This document shows, one piece after another, positions 37,167 through 44,881 of a stretch of 64,000 bases of DNA (position 1 is its first letter; each line of letters starts with the position of its first letter). The notes under the pieces were generated by a model. The model did no database searches. It had not been told where the DNA came from and saw nothing but the letters and a program-made list of their open reading frames with translations. The stretch lies in the NCBI RefSeq assembly GCF_056712565.1, contig NZ_CM160072.1; one strand, given 5' to 3'. The translations under genes and the position numbers were made by a program.

Positions 37167-37594
37167 GAATCACTGATCGTTATGTAAATATTTATATTAC
37201 GATCGGTGCATAGGCAAAATTATGATCCAGATCACACGTGAATGTAAGTTATTTACAAATTACGCTAACCTTCTGTCTCCGCTCTTTGCAGCATAAAAGT
37301 ATGGCGGCGCGTTGTTGAAAGCAGGAGCGGCCGGGTTGTCAGAAAGCTGGTTTGGACGCAAGTAATATATAACAACTCTGATTACCGCATACTGTCAGGA
37401 CAGTATCTACTTGAGCGTCCGCCTTTGGCACAAAGCGGACTGTCAGATTAGATTCAGACCTGTACTCATTAGCTGATACAAATCAGCCACATATACCTGC
37501 ATTCAAAATAATTTCAGAAAGATATTATCTCCGTGAATCCCCCGCCACCTTTCCGGTGCACGGGGTTTTGTCTTTTTTCACTGGGAATACATGT

Positions 37595-38029
37595 ATGAAT
37601 CCGTCTGATGCCATTGAGGCAATTGAAAAACCGCTCTCCTCCCTGCCTTACCCGATTTCCCGTCACATCCTGGAACATCTGCGCAAACTCACCCGTCACG
37701 AACCCGTGCCTGGCATTATGGGTAAAAGCGGGGCCGGTAAATCCTCACTCTGTAATGCACTGTTTCAGGGGGAGGTCACCCCGGTCAGTGCACTCATGAC
37801 AGTGCTTCCCGGACATGCCGCCATCCATCTGATGACACGCCTGCAGGACGAACTGCGCACGGAGTCTGTCCGCACTCAGACCCGTGAACAGTTTACCGGT
37901 GCGGTGGACCGGATATTTGACACGGCGGAGAGTGTCTGCATTGCCTCTGTTGCACGCACGGTTCTGCGCGCCGTCCGTGACTCGGTGGTCTCTGTTGCCC
38001 GCGCGGTATGGAACTGGATTTTCTTCTGA
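37595..38029 (+). pseudogene. yeeP: yeeP/yfjP-type prophage GTPase with an internal in-frame deletion of the GTPase core
   Basis: N-terminus with P-loop GIMGKSGAGKSSLCNALFQGEV and C-terminal tail ...VSVARAVWNWIFF are present, but the G3-G5 region is missing (145 aa instead of about 290). Confidence 0.55.
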
Positions 38030-38246: not shown

Positions 38247-40631
38247 ATGCACGAAAAGAACATCGCCCTGCTTTGTGATGAAGCCGACCGACTTTTGCAA
38301 CTGAACATTAATCTGCTCCGGCAAATGGTTGAGGAGCCAGATGTGTTATCTGACAGTAAGAACGAAAACAGACTGCTTTTTGATAAACAGAAAGCACTGA
38401 AAAGAATTGAGGAGCTGGAGGGCGAACAAATCAAAACCGCCCGCAGGGAGATGGTGCTGGCTGTTGTCGGCACGATGAAAGCAGGCAAATCAACCACCAT
38501 CAACGCCATTGTGGGGCAGGAAATTCTGCCTAACCGTAACCGCCCCATGACCTCTGTACCGACGCTCATCCGCCACGTTCCCGGAAAAACTGAGCCGGTT
38601 CTCCATCTGGAACATATTCAGCCTGTCCGCAATTTATTAATCACACTGCAGGAAAAACTCGCCACCCCGGCAGGACAGCAGGTCGCACAGACCCTGCAGC
38701 AAACCGGGGATACCCGCGAACTGCTGGATATTCTGACGGATGATGGCTGGCTCAAAAATGAATACCACGGGGAGGAGGAAATCTTTACCGGACTGGCATC
38801 GTTAAACGATCTGGTTCGTCTTGCTGCGGCAATGGAGACTGAATTTCCTTTTGATGAATACGCAGAAGTGCAGAAACTGCCGGTGATCGACGTGGAATTC
38901 AGCCATCTGGTGGGGATGGATGCATGCCAGGGAACACTCACACTGCTGGATACCCCCGGCCCTAATGAGGCCGGACAACCGCAGATGGAAGTGATGATGC
39001 GGGATCAACTGCAGAAAGCCTCTGCGGTTCTGGCTGTGATGGATTACACCCAGATGAACTCAAAAGCGGATGAAGACGTCCGTAAAGAGCTTAATGCCAT
39101 TGCTGACGTATCAGCCGGCCGCCTGTTTGTACTGGTCAATAAATTTGATGAGAAAGACCGCAATGGCGATGGGGCAGATGCCGTACGCCAGAAAGTTCCG
39201 GCAATGCTGAACAGCGATGTGCTGCCCGCCTCCCGCGTTTATCCCGGATCCTCACGCCAGGCATACCTGGCTAACCGTGCGCTTCATGAGTTACGGAAAA
39301 ACGGAACCCTTCCTGTTGATGAAGCCTGGGTCGATGATTTTGTCAGGGAAGCCTTCGGTCGCATGAAAAAAGATTACGTCTGTAAAGACAGCGAACTGGC
39401 AACTGAAGGGGCGACAGACCTGTGGGAATGCTCACTTATCGATCAACTGATAACGGAAGTCATACTGAGTTCACACTCCAGAGCTGCGGCACTGGCGGTT
39501 GATTCTGCCGCCGCAAAACTGATGCAGAATGCAGAAAATATCAGTGAATACCTGTCGTTACGCCATCAGGGGCTGATGCAAAGTATTCAGTCACTGCAGG
39601 CGCATATCACCAGCCTGCTTGAGGATATCCGGGAAATAGCAGACTGTCAGGAGCAGGTGACCGCTGATGTCAGAATGGCCATGGAGGAGATCGATGCCAG
39701 AACCCGGGAATTACTGACGGGGGTCTGCACCTCACTGGAAGAGGAGCTGAATGACTATTTCAGAAGCGGTAAACGCAAAGAACAGCAAATGCTGGAGGAA
39801 GAAAATTCAGCGCAGCCCCGGGAGAGAAACGCATTCGCTTTCTTTCACGATATTTTCGGAACCGGAAATCAGCATGACAGGATGCGGGACTTTGATCCCG
39901 ACAGCCCCGAAATAAAATTCAGTGATCGCAGGGAAGCCCTTGAACTGATGACGCAAATCGAATCGACCGTGACCAGCCTGCACCGTGAGGCTGAAGCACA
40001 GTTCCGGCCTGAGCTGGAGAAAATCGTCAGCGGGATTGAAACAGGTTTTCGTGGCACGGCCCTGTACGCCACAGAAAACATTGCCGGTCGCATCAATACC
40101 CGCCTGGAGGATGAGGGCTTTACCGTAAAAATCAGTTTTCCGGCAGTCAGTCAGTTACAAACCCGGCTCGCGGTAAAAACAAATCTGAGTGCGCTTATGG
40201 AGGAAAGAACGGAGACCGTCACCCGTCGCCGTCGGCAGAGTGGTTTATGGGGAAAGATTTGTGGAGCGTTTGGCACCAGTGACTGGGGCTGGGAAACCTA
40301 TAAAGAGGATGTGAGCCGCAGTGTTATCAATATCAACACCGTCAGGAAGGAAGTTATGTCACTGACCCGGGCATATTTCGGGGAGCTGCAGGCATCCATT
40401 GAGCAGGATATTAACCAGCCCGTCCGCCAGGAAATCGATGCCTTTTTCTGCGCATTCAGGGAGAAAGTTGAACAACTGCGTAACACGCTGATTCAGAGCT
40501 CTGAAGATCATAAACGCGATCAGCAGGCACAGGAACGGCTTACCAGGCGACTTCAGGCATTAAATGAAAGGGTTCCTGAGCTCATTACTGACAGTAAGGC
40601 GCTGAGGGAAGAGCTGGAGACAATGCTGTGA
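38247..40631 (+). CDS. bacterial dynamin-like large GTPase (CrfC/YjdA-type)
   Basis: 794 aa; G1 GTMKAGKSTTINAIVG, G3 LLDTPGPNE, G4 LVNKFDEKD, long coiled-coil C-terminal half; RBS aggaagg 8 nt before ATG. Confidence 0.8.
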   Translation: MHEKNIALLCDEADRLLQLNINLLRQMVEEPDVLSDSKNENRLLFDKQKALKRIEELEGEQIKTARREMVLAVVGTMKAGKSTTINAIVGQEILPNRNRPMTSVPTLIRHVPGKTEPVLHLEHIQPVRNLLITLQEKLATPAGQQVAQTLQQTGDTRELLDILTDDGWLKNEYHGEEEIFTGLASLNDLVRLAAAMETEFPFDEYAEVQKLPVIDVEFSHLVGMDACQGTLTLLDTPGPNEAGQPQMEVMMRDQLQKASAVLAVMDYTQMNSKADEDVRKELNAIADVSAGRLFVLVNKFDEKDRNGDGADAVRQKVPAMLNSDVLPASRVYPGSSRQAYLANRALHELRKNGTLPVDEAWVDDFVREAFGRMKKDYVCKDSELATEGATDLWECSLIDQLITEVILSSHSRAAALAVDSAAAKLMQNAENISEYLSLRHQGLMQSIQSLQAHITSLLEDIREIADCQEQVTADVRMAMEEIDARTRELLTGVCTSLEEELNDYFRSGKRKEQQMLEEENSAQPRERNAFAFFHDIFGTGNQHDRMRDFDPDSPEIKFSDRREALELMTQIESTVTSLHREAEAQFRPELEKIVSGIETGFRGTALYATENIAGRINTRLEDEGFTVKISFPAVSQLQTRLAVKTNLSALMEERTETVTRRRRQSGLWGKICGAFGTSDWGWETYKEDVSRSVININTVRKEVMSLTRAYFGELQASIEQDINQPVRQEIDAFFCAFREKVEQLRNTLIQSSEDHKRDQQAQERLTRRLQALNERVPELITDSKALREELETML

Positions 40632-41533
40632 CTTCACCATTTATTCAACAAATTGCTGATAACCGGGTATGTCAGGTACTCACCTGTCTTCCTGAAAAAT
40701 TTGTGGTTGATTTCGCAAACGGAATCGATGTTGCACAGGAGCATATCCGCACGGCCGGAGAGCGCACGTTCTTCCGGCGTTTAAAAGAGGGACTGACCGG
40801 CGAAGGCGCTGCACGGCAGAATGCCATCAATGCTTCGGTTGCACAGGGCCTTGAGGCGTCCCTGCGCTGGCTGACGGAGCTGACAACGTCACTTGCCACC
40901 ACAAACTACGCGATTACCCGGGTAAACGACAGGGTCAGTTCACTGGTCAGTGATACTGCCAGGCTGGCGCATTATTCCGCAGATACACGGGAGCAGTTAC
41001 TCATCCTGGCCGATCAGGTTCACCATAAACTGAATCATCTTGAAGAAAAACTCCACCGTGTTGACCAGGTTCAGCGGGCGCAGTTACATCTTGAGCAGAT
41101 ATTCTCATGGTGGAGCGCCGGGCGATATGCGTCATTTTCCCCTGCCGGACGTTGTTATGTGGCGCTTGAAGAGCTTCGCTGGGGCGCGTTTGGTGATGTG
41201 ATACGTCAGGGCGAAACAGGCCAGGTTAACCAGCTACTGGATATTCTCAGACATAAAGCATTAACGCAGATGGCACAGGAGAGTGGCGGTAGTGCAACCG
41301 TGCGTCTGAACACTCTGGACTGGCTTGGTGGTCAGGGCCGGGAGCAGGCAGATAACGAGTGGCATGACGCGATTAACTGGCTGGGAGACTGGTGCAGTGA
41401 AGAGCAGCATCCGGTGATCTGGTCAACCACGCAGGCTGCAGAACACTTACCGGTTCGCATGCCTCGCCTCTGCTCTGCAGAACGCCTCTCTGAAAGTATG
41501 GTCGATGAAATATTTCAGAAGGGGGCTGCATGA
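40628..41533 (+). CDS. dynamin-associated partner protein (possibly YjcZ-like), function unknown
   Basis: 301 aa; GTG start overlapping the dynamin stop (GTGA overlap), implying translational coupling. Confidence 0.55.
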   Translation: MTSPFIQQIADNRVCQVLTCLPEKFVVDFANGIDVAQEHIRTAGERTFFRRLKEGLTGEGAARQNAINASVAQGLEASLRWLTELTTSLATTNYAITRVNDRVSSLVSDTARLAHYSADTREQLLILADQVHHKLNHLEEKLHRVDQVQRAQLHLEQIFSWWSAGRYASFSPAGRCYVALEELRWGAFGDVIRQGETGQVNQLLDILRHKALTQMAQESGGSATVRLNTLDWLGGQGREQADNEWHDAINWLGDWCSEEQHPVIWSTTQAAEHLPVRMPRLCSAERLSESMVDEIFQKGAA

Positions 41534-42600
41534 GTACAGAAATGAAAACGGGGCTGGTGCTGTCCGGTGGCGGGGCGGTGGGCGCTTATCAGGCGGGAGT
41601 GGTTAAGGCACTGGCAGAGTGTGGTACACAGATCAGCATGGTTTCAGGGGCCAGCATTGGCGCATTCAATGGTGCCATTATCGCGGCCTCTCCCGATCTG
41701 TCAGAAGCTGCCGTACGCCTGGAGGCGCTCTGGGATCATCTGGGGAATAATCAGGTGCTGTCGGTAAACCGATTGGTTTACTTTTCATTGCTGAAAAAAT
41801 TGTTCCAGGCAATGAACCTCTGCCAGATCCCCGGACGTGCAGGAGCACTGCTTACGACGCTTCTTCGCCATATATCGATACTCAACGGGTTTGACAATCT
41901 GATGGCTCAGCCGTTGTTGTCAGATGAGCCCCTGACAGCGCTGTTGGATCATTATCTTGATACTGATGCTCTGGCAGACGGGCTACCGCTGTATGTGTCG
42001 CTGTACCCCACAGAAGGGGGCATGCAGGATATTATTGACTGCATTCGTGCTGAACTGGGTGCCGGAACCACGAAAAACGCCGTTTTTCAGCATATCCAGA
42101 GCCTGCCCCGCGGACAGCAGAAAGAGGCTCTGCTTGCGTCAGCCGCGCTGCCCCTGCTGTTCCGTCCCCGTGAGGTTCAGGGGACAATGTTCGGTGATGG
42201 TGGTATGGGAGGATGGCGAAATATGCAGGGAAATACCCCTGTGACGCCTCTGGTCGATGCCGGATGCAATATGGTGATTGTGACGCATCTGAGTGACGGT
42301 TCTTTATGGGATCGCCAGGCTTTTCCGGACACCACAATCCTTGAGATCCGTCCCCGGAAAAGGCTGAAATATGCAGGTGATGGTGACAACAGCGGCGGTC
42401 TGCTCAGTTTCACGTTGGCACATACCGACGCCTGGCGTCAGCAGGGCTATGAAGACACGATGCTGACGATGGAGCATATCCGGAAACCGCTGGCAGCACG
42501 TCAGGTACTGTCCCGGTCAGAAACGGTGTTGCAGAAAAGTCTGGAGATAACGGAAGAGGCAGATTTGGCACTGAGAAACGCGATGGCCCGGATTAAATAA
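41530..42600 (+). CDS. patatin-like phospholipase
   Basis: 356 aa; glycine-rich oxyanion loop LSGGGAVGAYQAG, nucleophile elbow GASIG (GxSxG), catalytic-Asp DGG motif (FGDGGMGG); ATGA overlap with the preceding gene. Confidence 0.8.
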   Translation: MSTEMKTGLVLSGGGAVGAYQAGVVKALAECGTQISMVSGASIGAFNGAIIAASPDLSEAAVRLEALWDHLGNNQVLSVNRLVYFSLLKKLFQAMNLCQIPGRAGALLTTLLRHISILNGFDNLMAQPLLSDEPLTALLDHYLDTDALADGLPLYVSLYPTEGGMQDIIDCIRAELGAGTTKNAVFQHIQSLPRGQQKEALLASAALPLLFRPREVQGTMFGDGGMGGWRNMQGNTPVTPLVDAGCNMVIVTHLSDGSLWDRQAFPDTTILEIRPRKRLKYAGDGDNSGGLLSFTLAHTDAWRQQGYEDTMLTMEHIRKPLAARQVLSRSETVLQKSLEITEEADLALRNAMARIK

Positions 42601-42617
42601 AGACGCCCCAAAGAAAC

Positions 42618-42641
42618 GCCACCGCCTGTGGTGGTGTTTTT
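42618..42641 (+). terminator. rho-independent terminator after the patatin gene
   Basis: Hairpin gccaccgcctgtggtggtg followed by ttttt. Confidence 0.55.
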
Positions 42642-42930
42642 CCTGGCTGGTGTTATTGAAAATATTTTCAGATATATATTACCTGAGAGAAAGTTTTACC
42701 CCTCACCTGTCAATTCACTCACTGGAAATTTAATTATGCAATTACCTGTAAAGTTATTAATGAGCCTTATATCTCTGGTCAGCGTTATTGCACGTGCCGG
42801 GAAATATAAAAATTACATCCGGGATGAAATAAAATACTGGCGATATACATCATACAAGGGGGGGGAATTTCCGGAAGGTTTCACTGATGAGAAATTTTCC
42901 AGCGCCATTTACAACGGAAGAATATTTACA

Positions 42931-43413
42931 ATGAAACGTTTACATACCCTGATGTTATTTCTGGCGGTTCTGTTTACTGGCTTTAACGTGGAAGCAGCGA
43001 GCGTGAAACAAGCGCTCAGCTGCGACCCAAACGCCCGGGCTGAACAACCTGGAGCGTGTCCAACAACGTACGAGTTGTACGAAGGTGACGCTGCCTACAA
43101 AGCTGCGCTTGACAAAGCATTAAAACCGGTCGGACTGAGCGGCATGTTCGGTAAAGGCGGGTATATGGATGGCCCTGGCGGAAACGTAACGCCAGTAACC
43201 ATTAACGGTACAGTCTGGCTCCAGGGCGACGGTTGCAAAGCCAATACCTGCGGCTGGGACTTTATCGTAACACTCTATAACCCAAAAACCCATGAAGTCG
43301 TTGGCTACCGCTACTTTGGTTTAGATGACCCGGCCTACCTGGTTTGGTTCGGCGAAATTGGCGTGCATGAATTCGCGTATCTGGTGAAAAACTACGTAGC
43401 TGCGGTTAACTAA
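42931..43413 (+). CDS. secreted protein, possibly Ivy-like (inhibitor of vertebrate lysozyme) fold
   Basis: Signal peptide MKRLHTLMLFLAVLFTGFNVEA; Cys pair in GDGCKANTCGWDF reminiscent of the Ivy CKPHDCG loop; assignment tentative. Confidence 0.4.
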   Translation: MKRLHTLMLFLAVLFTGFNVEAASVKQALSCDPNARAEQPGACPTTYELYEGDAAYKAALDKALKPVGLSGMFGKGGYMDGPGGNVTPVTINGTVWLQGDGCKANTCGWDFIVTLYNPKTHEVVGYRYFGLDDPAYLVWFGEIGVHEFAYLVKNYVAAVN

Positions 43414-43428
43414 TTTAAGGAGTCTGTC

Positions 43429-43839
43429 ATGAAAACTTTTATCAAAACTTTACTCGTTGCTGTAACTATTCTGTTCTCTGTCTTCGCTACGGCGAAACAA
43501 GTAAAACTGCCAAACAACATCAAATACGTTAATACTACAGAGGCGTTTTCCTGTACTGAGATTGACGGTATGAATTGCCAGACGAAGAATCCGTTTAACT
43601 ATAAAGATAACAGCTATGTTTTCGTGCTTGAACGTGGTGGTGCCTGGTGTTACGACTACACTGTCTCGGTACTTAACCTGAAAACCGGGAAAGCACAGAT
43701 GCTCGAATACAAAGACAACCAGCTGTGCTCAGGTAGCAACAAACCGTTCTTCGAAATCAAAAATGGCGTACCGACGGTAGGAGTCATCGACACATCCGGA
43801 AAACCTGTCGTTGTGGCTCTGGACAAACTTAAAACCTGA
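43429..43839 (+). CDS. small secreted cysteine-containing protein, function unknown
   Basis: Signal peptide MKTFIKTLLVAVTILFSVFATA, 136 aa, RBS aaggag upstream. Confidence 0.5.
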   Translation: MKTFIKTLLVAVTILFSVFATAKQVKLPNNIKYVNTTEAFSCTEIDGMNCQTKNPFNYKDNSYVFVLERGGAWCYDYTVSVLNLKTGKAQMLEYKDNQLCSGSNKPFFEIKNGVPTVGVIDTSGKPVVVALDKLKT

Positions 43840-43980
43840 GGAGTAAACCATGCGTTTCTCTGCACATTATTAATATCAAAGGTAAATACAGCCCCAGCCA
43901 TTGTTGCCGGAAAGCCGCTTAATGCGTGGCTCGCCAGTGAAAGGCTTCTCAGACAATAAACCTCATTCATTTCACCCGTC

Positions 43981-44016
43981 AGGCCGCGTCTTCTCCGGGA
44001 GACGTGGCTTTTTTCA
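43981..44016 (+). terminator. rho-independent terminator after the secreted-protein pair
   Basis: Hairpin around ccgcgtcttctccgggagacgtgg followed by cttttttc. Confidence 0.5.
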
Positions 44017-44059
44017 TTTATTACACCAGTAAATCTTAACCACCGATAAGGAGCAAAGT

Positions 44060-44881
44060 ATGCGATTAGCAAGTCGTTTTGGTTATGCTGCAAACCAGAT
44101 ACGTCGTGACCGTCCACTGACACATGAAGAGCTGATGCACCATGTGCCGGGGATTTTCGGGGAAGAGAAACACACGTCCCGAAGCCAGAACTATACGTAC
44201 ATCCCCACCATCACCGTACTGGAAAATCTGCAGCGGGAAGGCTTTCAGCCGTTCTTCGCCTGCCAGACCCGTGTGCGCGACCAGAGCCGCCGGGAATATA
44301 CCAAACATATGCTGCGTCTGCGGCGGGCCGGACAGATAACCGGTCAGCATGTGCCTGAAATTATTCTGCTCAACTCCCATGACGGTTCATCCAGCTACCA
44401 GATGTTACCCGGATATTTTCGTGCCATTTGTACCAATGGCCTGGTCTGCGGTCAGTCGCTGGGAGAAGTCCGGGTGCCACACCGGGGAAACGTGGTGGAC
44501 AGGGTCATAGAAGGTGCTTACGAAGTGGTGGGCGTGTTTGACCTGATTGAGGAAAAGCGTGATGCCATGCAGTCGCTGGTCCTGCCGCCACCGGCACGCC
44601 AGGCGCTGGCACAGGCGGCGCTGACTTACCGTTATGGTGATGAACATCAGCCCGTCACCACTACCGACATTCTGACGCCACGACGCCGGGAGGATTACGG
44701 TAAGGACCTGTGGAGTGCTTATCAGACCATCCAGGAGAATATGCTGAAAGGCGGGATTTCCGGTCGCAGTGCCAGAGGAAAACGTATCCATACCCGGGCC
44801 ATTCACAGCATCGATACCGACATTAAGCTCAACCGGGCGTTGTGGGTGATGGCAGAAACGCTGCTGGAGAGCCTGCGCTGA
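44060..44881 (+). CDS. DUF932-family cryptic-prophage protein (YfjQ-like)
   Basis: 273 aa; position and size match the DUF932 gene preceding the antirestriction/RadC genes in CP4-57-type elements. Confidence 0.5.
   Translation: MRLASRFGYAANQIRRDRPLTHEELMHHVPGIFGEEKHTSRSQNYTYIPTITVLENLQREGFQPFFACQTRVRDQSRREYTKHMLRLRRAGQITGQHVPEIILLNSHDGSSSYQMLPGYFRAICTNGLVCGQSLGEVRVPHRGNVVDRVIEGAYEVVGVFDLIEEKRDAMQSLVLPPPARQALAQAALTYRYGDEHQPVTTTDILTPRRREDYGKDLWSAYQTIQENMLKGGISGRSARGKRIHTRAIHSIDTDIKLNRALWVMAETLLESLR

Follow-up and report, generated by a model that had tools for sequence, protein, structure and literature searches.

Ivy-type lysozyme inhibitors have hitherto been regarded as bacterial proteins. 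Their inhibitory loop, CKPHDC, is reported to be indispensable for lysozyme inhibition and to be strictly conserved among 30 members of the family (PMC4262234, citing Abergel et al. 2007), and Ivy proteins also inhibit lytic transglycosylases (PMC10139938). Bacteriophage T4 encodes Spackle, an early periplasmic protein that inhibits the tail lysozyme and brings about superinfection exclusion (PMC7677548). Here we analyse two small genes in a stretch of 64,000 nucleotides ("the window") from contig NZ_CM160072.1 of RefSeq assembly GCF_056712565.1, which is identical (100%) to Escherichia coli Nissle 1917 and related B2 strains. The two open reading frames (ORFs), ORF1 (42931-43413) and ORF2 (43429-43839), lie on the + strand downstream of a dynamin/patatin operon. 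An earlier note, made from the sequence alone, had described them as small secreted cysteine-containing proteins that might be periplasmic inhibitors, immunity proteins for the adjacent lipase, or unrelated cargo; we recovered both ORFs at these positions and on this strand, with signal-peptide-like N-termini and cysteines. What is new here, and well supported, is an altered-loop Ivy-fold protein in a jumbo-phage operon, captured by bacterial islands. Both its identity and its origin were somewhat surprising to us.

ORF1 and the Ivy family

ORF1 encodes a 160-residue precursor of a predicted periplasmic protein, with predicted disulphides C31-C43 and C102-C107. By itself, the sequence scored only 13.2 bits against the NCBIfam model NF007443 (E=0.06, threshold 180). 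A phmmer search of the PDB gave only chance matches to IMP dehydrogenase, and a first word-index search for homologues returned E. coli and Shigella sequences only. The Ivy link required an exhaustive profile search, in which a profile built from 13 E. coli-clade ORF1 sequences was compared with 1.84 billion representative proteins. The profile matched 58 proteins, whose distant members share 21-32% identity and have a second, N-terminal Cys pair in common. All ten of the nearest distant relatives exceed the Pfam gathering score for Ivy, and the Pfam model matches 27 of the 34 aligned ORF1-family proteins. The extended ORF1 profile retrieved from the PDB the Ivy structures of E. coli (1GPQ/1XS0, E=4e-12) and Pseudomonas aeruginosa (4PS6/1UUZ, ~1e-9). 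Using hhalign, the E. coli-clade alignment could be matched to E. coli Ivy over 81 columns with E=3.9e-4 (the Ivy sequence used agrees with the PDB alignments).

An AlphaFold2 model of ORF1 calculated from the 34-sequence alignment has a mean predicted local distance difference test score (pLDDT) of 93.8 and a predicted template-modelling score (pTM) of 0.88. Searching the PDB with this model in Foldseek, the top eight matches are all Ivy structures (4PS6, 1UUZ, 1GPQ, 1XS0; template-modelling score 0.56-0.73, E 2e-5 to 4e-3). The ninth has E=1.2, and only Ivy entries have E below 1. A Foldseek search of the BFVD viral structures returned nothing at E<=0.001, and no Ivy-fold protein was found there. 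The earlier note had called the Cys loop of the first protein reminiscent of Ivy and had proposed structure prediction and Foldseek as a check. This check has now been run and gave Ivy structures only, and the resemblance turns out to reflect real homology and a shared fold. The homology is profile-level and transitive via relatives, the single sequence lying below the Pfam cut-off; on this basis, and judging from the predicted structure, ORF1 is a divergent, previously unannotated member of the Ivy family and fold.

C102 and C107 of ORF1 are invariant in the E. coli clade and nearly so in the wider family. In three independent alignments their positions coincide exactly with those of C57 and C62 in E. 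coli Ivy, and the Cys loop is also in register in the sub-threshold Ivy matches of ORF1 alone (Pfam, NCBIfam and 1GPQ). Both proteins thus have a six-residue disulphide-closed loop followed by Gly at the same position, CKANTCG in ORF1 (predicted disulphide) and CKPHDCG in Ivy. Unlike the Ivy loop, that of ORF1 is devoid of Pro, His and Asp; only Cys, Lys and Cys are kept. The other loops in the ORF1 clade are CKAHAC (in a group of related islands, termed L003-type below), CKANAC, CKSNAC and CKSDAC, with N, H or D at the His position. Given that CKANTC does not have the His and Asp of CKPHDC, inhibition of vertebrate lysozyme by ORF1 is not to be assumed. From the alignments and the model, lysozyme inhibition is plausible. 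The idea of a periplasmic inhibitor therefore survives in part for the first protein: fold and loop position are Ivy-like, but the His and Asp of the loop reported as essential are missing.

Several of the distant Ivy-like relatives are fusion proteins (the set comprises P0094, P0095, P0130, P0125 and P0135). In three fusions, the Ivy-like domain is followed by a conserved Cys-containing C-terminal domain of ~170 residues with weak similarity to DUF7908; one Ivy-like domain is fused to a caspase-like Peptidase_C14 domain, and another is preceded by DnaJ and zinc-ribbon domains. The gene neighbourhoods of two further distant relatives, P0097 and P0103, contain ordinary chromosomal neighbours. 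Some public records of the L003-type allele (P0007) misname the 160-residue Ivy-like protein "DNA polymerase III subunit gamma/tau".

ORF2 and the jumbo-phage operon

ORF2 encodes a 136-residue precursor of a predicted periplasmic, predicted all-beta protein with four cysteines. Residues 1-129 match positions 1-131 of the 135 in phrog_8968, a phage family without an assigned function (E=9.1e-44). A tblastn search found ORF2 homologues with 29-37% identity in 38 jumbo phages of Salmonella, Erwinia, Escherichia and Proteus, among them SPN3US, SEGD1, phiEaH2 and Asesino. These phages carry three ORF2-family paralogues in tandem (gp085, gp084 and gp083 in SPN3US). C50, G70, C74 and C100 are invariant among the island and phage members of the family, including two paralogous phage groups. 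A profile search found no member outside E. coli islands and SPN3US-like jumbo phages, and ORF2 has no match in Pfam, NCBIfam, PADLOC or the PDB. The sole PDB match of the ORF2 profile, the designed protein ThreeFoil (E=5.5e-4 for the full sequence), was rejected, as it consists of three weak repeats, each non-significant. We also discarded SH3b_T, which Pfam gave with E=0.11 for one member only, and a kinship of the ORF2 family with the Ivy-like family, which hhalign puts at a probability of 1%; the two families are hence unrelated. The suggestion that the second protein is a lysozyme inhibitor is unsupported: no similarity of ORF2 to Ivy, MliC, PliC, PliG or PliI was found.

The pair has counterparts in phage genomes. 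An ORF1 homologue with 61% identity (P0014) is found on a 64-kb metagenomic contig, L007, in the order YfjT, YfjT, a 131-residue protein (phrog_9424), Ivy-like, ORF2-like, a 129-residue ORF2 paralogue (phrog_5248), phrog_8115, phrog_9964 and an SbcC/SMC-like protein. This array is syntenic with SPN3US gp086-gp080, with protein identities of 31-59%. The same array is present in a second lineage, L018 (71% identity in ORF1), and in five IMG/VR viral contigs of 107-225 kb; the order over the metagenomic and IMG/VR contigs is YfjT, 131 residues, Ivy-like, ORF2-like, 129 residues, 158 residues, 202 residues, SMC-like. Among cultured phages, their nearest relatives are Asesino and phiEaH2 of Erwinia, whose SMC-like proteins are 68-69% identical to theirs. 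At the nucleotide level, window positions 42920-43869 align without a break to L007 8001-8940 with 69% identity (blastn). The homology to L007 and L018 extends beyond the ORF2 stop codon and a GGAGTAAACC ribosome-binding site into the following gene, where it ends after ~7 codons. In the window, that gene (the 129-residue ORF2 paralogue, phrog_5248) keeps its ribosome-binding site but is reduced to an 8-codon stub, MRFSAHY and a stop codon, which occupies 43850-43873 (+ strand) and closes the phage-derived block on the right.

On the left, the block is marked off by a promoter-like motif of jumbo-phage type at 42655-42690 (+ strand), with the core TCAGATATATATTAC at 42668-42682. This segment aligns with sequence ~64 nucleotides upstream of the first array gene in L007 and L018, and in each of the phage loci the array is headed by one copy of TATATTAC. 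An extended motif of ~24 nucleotides, TCAGATATATATTAC-Y-TAGGTGAG (42668-42690 in the window), occurs six times in the complete SPN3US genome (NC_027402.1; positions 56299, 65418, 94244, 113991, 165692 and 223282, loci L021-L024). All six copies are on the + strand, intergenic and ~65 nucleotides upstream of hypothetical genes. The pattern fits what has been published on the AT-rich early promoters that jumbo phages transcribe with their virion RNA polymerase (PMC7598289, PMC8244752, PMC11512511). By this analogy, the motif probably represents a class of phage promoter, and we infer that it would act as an early promoter in SPN3US-like phages. A literature search for TATATTAC found nothing relevant. 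We set aside as unsupported the idea that the injected RNA polymerase of an infecting phage transcribes the island genes via this motif, because early jumbo-phage transcription probably takes place in a compartment apart from the host chromosome.

Sequence comparison thus gives good support to the view that ~42650-43873 (~1.2 kb) is a captured fragment of an operon of SPN3US/Seoulvirus-like jumbo phages, whose genomes measure ~220-225 kb. The true start of the unit is ~42650 rather than 42931, and the third-gene stub at 43850-43873 belongs to it. In the islands we find truncated flanking genes together with a phage-specific motif, whereas the phages have intact arrays; this points to transfer from phage to island. 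The "unrelated cargo" option of the earlier note comes closest to the truth in this one sense, that the pair is a captured phage fragment.

In a neighbour-joining tree, the majority of island alleles fall into a single clade next to two phage clades. In P0005 and P0006, an island-type fused N-terminus is joined to a phage-type body, a mosaic that suggests further recombination or capture. The G+C content (GC) of the Ivy-like gene is 45-47% in phages and L003-type islands and 51% in the window allele; the higher value is consistent with amelioration towards host composition. The first gene of the phage array, or the first two, belong to the YfjT family (PF27224; L007 6598-7551, L018 6106-6567, L027-L031 5106-5558), which is named for a gene of the E. 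coli K-12 prophage CP4-57. Judging from this distribution, there seems to be a wider pool of small exported proteins that is common to CP4-type islands and SPN3US-like phages.

Gene models, boundaries and island variants

Signal peptides were assessed by inspection. The N-termini of ORF1 (MKRLHTLMLFLAVLFTGFNVEA/AS) and ORF2 (MKTFIKTLLVAVTILFSVFATA/KQ) both resemble Sec signal peptides, with a basic n-region, a hydrophobic core (Kyte-Doolittle 2.8 in each) and small residues at -3/-1, in agreement with the clear signal peptides claimed earlier. A Shine-Dalgarno-like sequence, TAAGGAG, lies upstream of ORF2. The four cysteines of each protein are invariant, or almost so, among alleles. Pairwise ratios of non-synonymous to synonymous substitution rates (dN/dS) are 0.12-0.25 (five ORF1 alleles, four ORF2 alleles), and ORF1 and ORF2 are therefore genuine protein-coding genes under purifying selection.

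The NCBI pipeline gives a different model for ORF1, a protein of 225 residues starting at 42736 (WP_001362823.1), whereas all unfused ORF1 homologues start with MKRL. The longer model can be traced to a deletion of ~0.7 kb relative to L003-type islands, which joined 65 codons of another gene, ORF0, in frame to ORF1. The L003-type islands contain an intact ORF0 (180 residues), a degraded version of the 131-residue gene, the Ivy-like gene and patatin, and are without ORF2. In the window, ORF0 is reduced to the 65-codon 5' remnant at 42736-42930 (+ strand), which is 44% identical to the intact L003 protein over 63 residues. ORF0 itself (L003 7098-7640) is a signal-peptide protein with several cysteines and has no match in Pfam, PHROG or PADLOC. 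The phage contigs showed no homologue of ORF0; YfjT genes hold that position there.

The locus is an E. coli island of the CP4-44 type. The genes 5' of the pair are, in order, a TonB-dependent receptor, a truncated small GTPase, a dynamin-like protein (794 residues), a YjcZ/RdcB-like protein and a patatin-like phospholipase; those 3' of it are DUF932, an antirestriction gene, RadC/YeeS, YeeT and CbeA/CbtA. The patatin stop codon at 42600 is directly followed by a terminator-like hairpin (42620-42641; the feature with its T-run spans 42617-42641 on the + strand, with a stem of 7 pairs at 42620-42636 and a TTTTT tail), which is kept in L003-type islands. On the other side, an intrinsic-terminator-like hairpin of 13 pairs with a T-run (43981-44016, + strand) lies upstream of the DUF932 gene. 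It is part of the island backbone, and positions 43929-44060 are 94.7% identical to L003-type islands. Since these two hairpins flank the block, we regard the pair as a unit apart from the dynamin/patatin operon, as the earlier note had done. Its remark that both genes are AT-rich applies to ORF2 (42.8% GC) and the upstream spacer (39.4%), but not to ORF1 (51.3%, against 49.7% for the window). An Rfam scan of 42400-44300 found no RNA family. A 155-residue ORF on the minus strand (43656-44123), which overlaps the end of ORF2 and the downstream spacer, is most likely spurious; related islands have only short, differing ORFs at its position (L003 8455-8547 and 8687-8914).

The dynamin-like, YjcZ/RdcB-like and patatin genes (38247-42600) overlap by 4 bp at 40628-40631 and 41530-41533, and the three-gene operon therefore looks translationally coupled. 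In PADLOC, the dynamin-like protein has a weak match (E=4e-6) to LeoBC, a model of the Eleos defence system. A 2026 paper reports that lysogens of Kapi1 induce homologous dynamin/RdcB-like/phospholipase operons more strongly than most other genes, and it proposes a defence role for them (PMC12922286). Upstream of the dynamin-like gene, a 157-residue ORF with the N-terminus of a P-loop GTPase (37556-38029) is probably a pseudogene; GTPases at the same position in islands L006 and L016 have 243-290 residues. In islands L002 and L005, an IS21-family insertion (rve, IstB; 653-4996) splits the dynamin-like gene, so that the dynamin operon is inactivated there; the Ivy-like gene is intact.

Proposed function and comparison with known systems

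The reading we favour, with a probability of roughly 0.6, is that the block is a ~1.2-kb fragment of a jumbo-phage operon, in which ORF1 would be an Ivy-fold inhibitor of a peptidoglycan-cleaving enzyme and ORF2 a separate periplasmic protein. ORF1 would be exported by the Sec pathway and form its disulphides in the periplasm, where its C-K-x-x-x-C loop would insert into the substrate cleft of the target enzyme, as the loop of Ivy does. The target may be a lysozyme or a lytic transglycosylase; given that Ivy proteins inhibit the latter as well, the range of possible targets extends beyond vertebrate lysozyme. As the family is carried by phages and its loop differs from CKPHDC, the likeliest target would be a phage or bacterial periplasmic muramidase or transglycosylase, not a vertebrate C-type lysozyme. 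Acting in this way, ORF1 might block cell-wall penetration by an incoming phage, in the manner of T4 Spackle, or it might restrain lysis enzymes. ORF2 would probably be another, independent periplasmic binding protein of the same toolkit, a partner of neither ORF1 nor patatin. SPN3US has ORF2-family genes and no Ivy-like gene, and L003-type islands have an Ivy-like gene and no ORF2; since each occurs without the other, we take their adjacency to be inherited synteny, which provides no evidence of joint action.

A number of observations weigh against this reading. ORF1 alone scores 13.8 bits against the Pfam Ivy family (PF08816; E=0.067), below the cut-off of 21. In the window allele, the active-site-binding His of Ivy is replaced by Asn and the Asp by Thr; 24 of 29 distant relatives keep the His, mostly as CE[AP]HNC, so that the function of the loop may be altered or lost here. 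A tblastn search with ORF1 found no match among GenBank phages. These cultured phages are without an Ivy-like gene, and in SPN3US an ORF2-family paralogue sits in its slot. ORF1, ORF2, ORF0 and the phage array proteins have no match in PADLOC-DB 2.0 at E<=0.01. Purifying selection may have operated chiefly in phages, before capture. Finally, the deletion in the window removed the native region 5' of ORF1, no sigma-70-like promoter was detected on the + strand upstream of the pair, and translation from 42736 would yield a protein with two hydrophobic segments, the second of which could be a stop-transfer anchor that leaves the Ivy domain in the cytoplasm. For these three reasons, expression and export of the window allele are uncertain.

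Some of these features would also suit a block that is merely inert, decaying phage cargo, with little or no expression in E. coli and no current function. The flanking phage genes are truncated or degraded, the loss of ORF1's native upstream region has created an awkward fusion ORF, the sole promoter-like element resembles a phage-polymerase motif with no sigma-70-like promoter found beside it, and some islands have lost ORF2. We nevertheless consider inert cargo unlikely: both ORFs are intact in protein clusters of 477, 1706 and 1133 members, the genes are present in ~43% of complete E. coli genomes, and dN/dS between island alleles is 0.17-0.22. Moreover, GC and GC at third codon positions in the window allele of ORF1 have risen towards E. 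coli values, which suggests long residence with the reading frame kept open. The phage link would be incidental if ORF1 were a second, accessory inhibitor of vertebrate C-type lysozyme, a functional paralogue of the chromosomal Ivy with which E. coli in the gut or outside it would better withstand the lysozyme of the host. Such a role would agree with the predicted Ivy fold, the in-register Cys loop and the conserved Lys, with the His that some island alleles keep (CKAHAC, L003-type), and with the frequency of the genes in host-associated E. coli, including B2 strains. It is made improbable by the loop, which is CKANTC in the window allele and varies among alleles at the His position (N, H or D), whereas the CKPHDC motif is reported to be strictly conserved in Ivy proteins that inhibit lysozyme, and essential for inhibition (PMC4262234). 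The closest relatives of ORF1 are, moreover, in lytic jumbo phages, which gain nothing from resistance to animal lysozyme.

We consider it very improbable that the pair serves the neighbouring patatin-like phospholipase, or the dynamin-like system, as immunity proteins or regulators in the periplasm. In favour of such a role, the block follows directly on the patatin gene in all E. coli islands, and PMC12922286 reports strong induction of dynamin operon homologues and mentions "five genes" on one of the islands. The patatin protein, however, has no Pfam domain beyond patatin and, on inspection, no obvious N-terminal export signal; it is therefore probably cytoplasmic, whereas the small proteins are predicted to be exported. 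A terminator-like hairpin separates the patatin gene from the pair, and the block differs from the patatin operon in origin and GC content. Co-occurrence is not obligate either: seven phage contigs have the pair without a nearby patatin or dynamin gene, island L016 has the pair and no called patatin gene, and L003-type islands have patatin and the Ivy-like gene but not ORF2. As pair and patatin occur apart, the lipase-immunity role suggested earlier is unsupported. At the bolder end, SPN3US-like phages might carry an early operon of exported proteins that guard or remodel the periplasm of the host, including an Ivy-fold inhibitor of a phage enzyme that pierces the cell wall. Such a protein would be a Spackle-like superinfection-exclusion factor with a new structure, and E. 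coli islands would have captured the operon fragment repeatedly as an entry-level defence against the same phages, which form a nucleus and evade DNA-targeting immunity. We regard this extension of the favoured reading as speculative and doubtful.

Among 5426 complete E. coli genomes, 2332 contain ORF1 and 2365 contain ORF2, in two main allele groups. The carriers, nearly half of the total, include Nissle 1917, uropathogenic strains and O157. Every E. coli copy of either gene is labelled "hypothetical protein", and in the literature we found no discussion of the protein accession numbers of the pair. The Ivy-fold assignment gives the "hypothetical" ORF1 a concrete, testable biochemical hypothesis. 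Since its closest relatives are in an operon of ~220-kb jumbo phages, it also suggests that phages use the Ivy scaffold in the periplasm. One does not expect to find DNA of lytic jumbo phages in host chromosomes. The colinear fragment in a chromosomal island, with its promoter-like motif and gene stubs, documents gene flow from jumbo phages, and it points to a pool of small periplasmic proteins common to phages and islands that includes YfjT of the K-12 prophage CP4-57. If the proteins do keep phages from entering, the defence islands that also hold the dynamin-like/patatin operon would gain a periplasmic layer.

Compared with the systems described so far, ORF1 is closest to Ivy. Like YkfE of E. 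coli and PA3902 of P. aeruginosa, it is of similar size and predicted to be Sec-exported and periplasmic, and its model shares with Ivy a five-stranded antiparallel sheet flanked by helices, despite a sequence identity of only 18-21%. Unlike Ivy, it carries an additional stretch at the N-terminus containing another conserved disulphide (C31...C43-P), which is common to the "C...CPY / CExHNC" subfamily, and it is encoded in jumbo phages and mobile islands, whereas Ivy is a core chromosomal gene. ORF2 has its best counterpart in SPN3US gp084, with which it shares its length (136 residues), Cys pattern and operon position, although identity to the proteins of cultured phages in phrog_8968 and phrog_5248 (SPN3US gp083-gp085) is only 29-37%. 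With MliC/PliC, PliG and PliI it has in common that they are small, exported, mostly beta-stranded, disulphide-containing periplasmic proteins, properties that are predicted for ORF2. T4 Spackle (gp61.3), which targets gp5, is a functional analogue only. Spackle and ORF1 are both small phage proteins with a signal peptide for export to the host periplasm and with disulphides (predicted for ORF1), and Spackle is an early gene, as the early-promoter-like motif at the head of the phage array would suggest for ORF1. Spackle, however, is an alpha-helical bundle that binds beside the cleft, acts allosterically and is unrelated to Ivy-type inhibitors (PMC7677548), whereas ORF1 is predicted to have the alpha/beta fold of Ivy.

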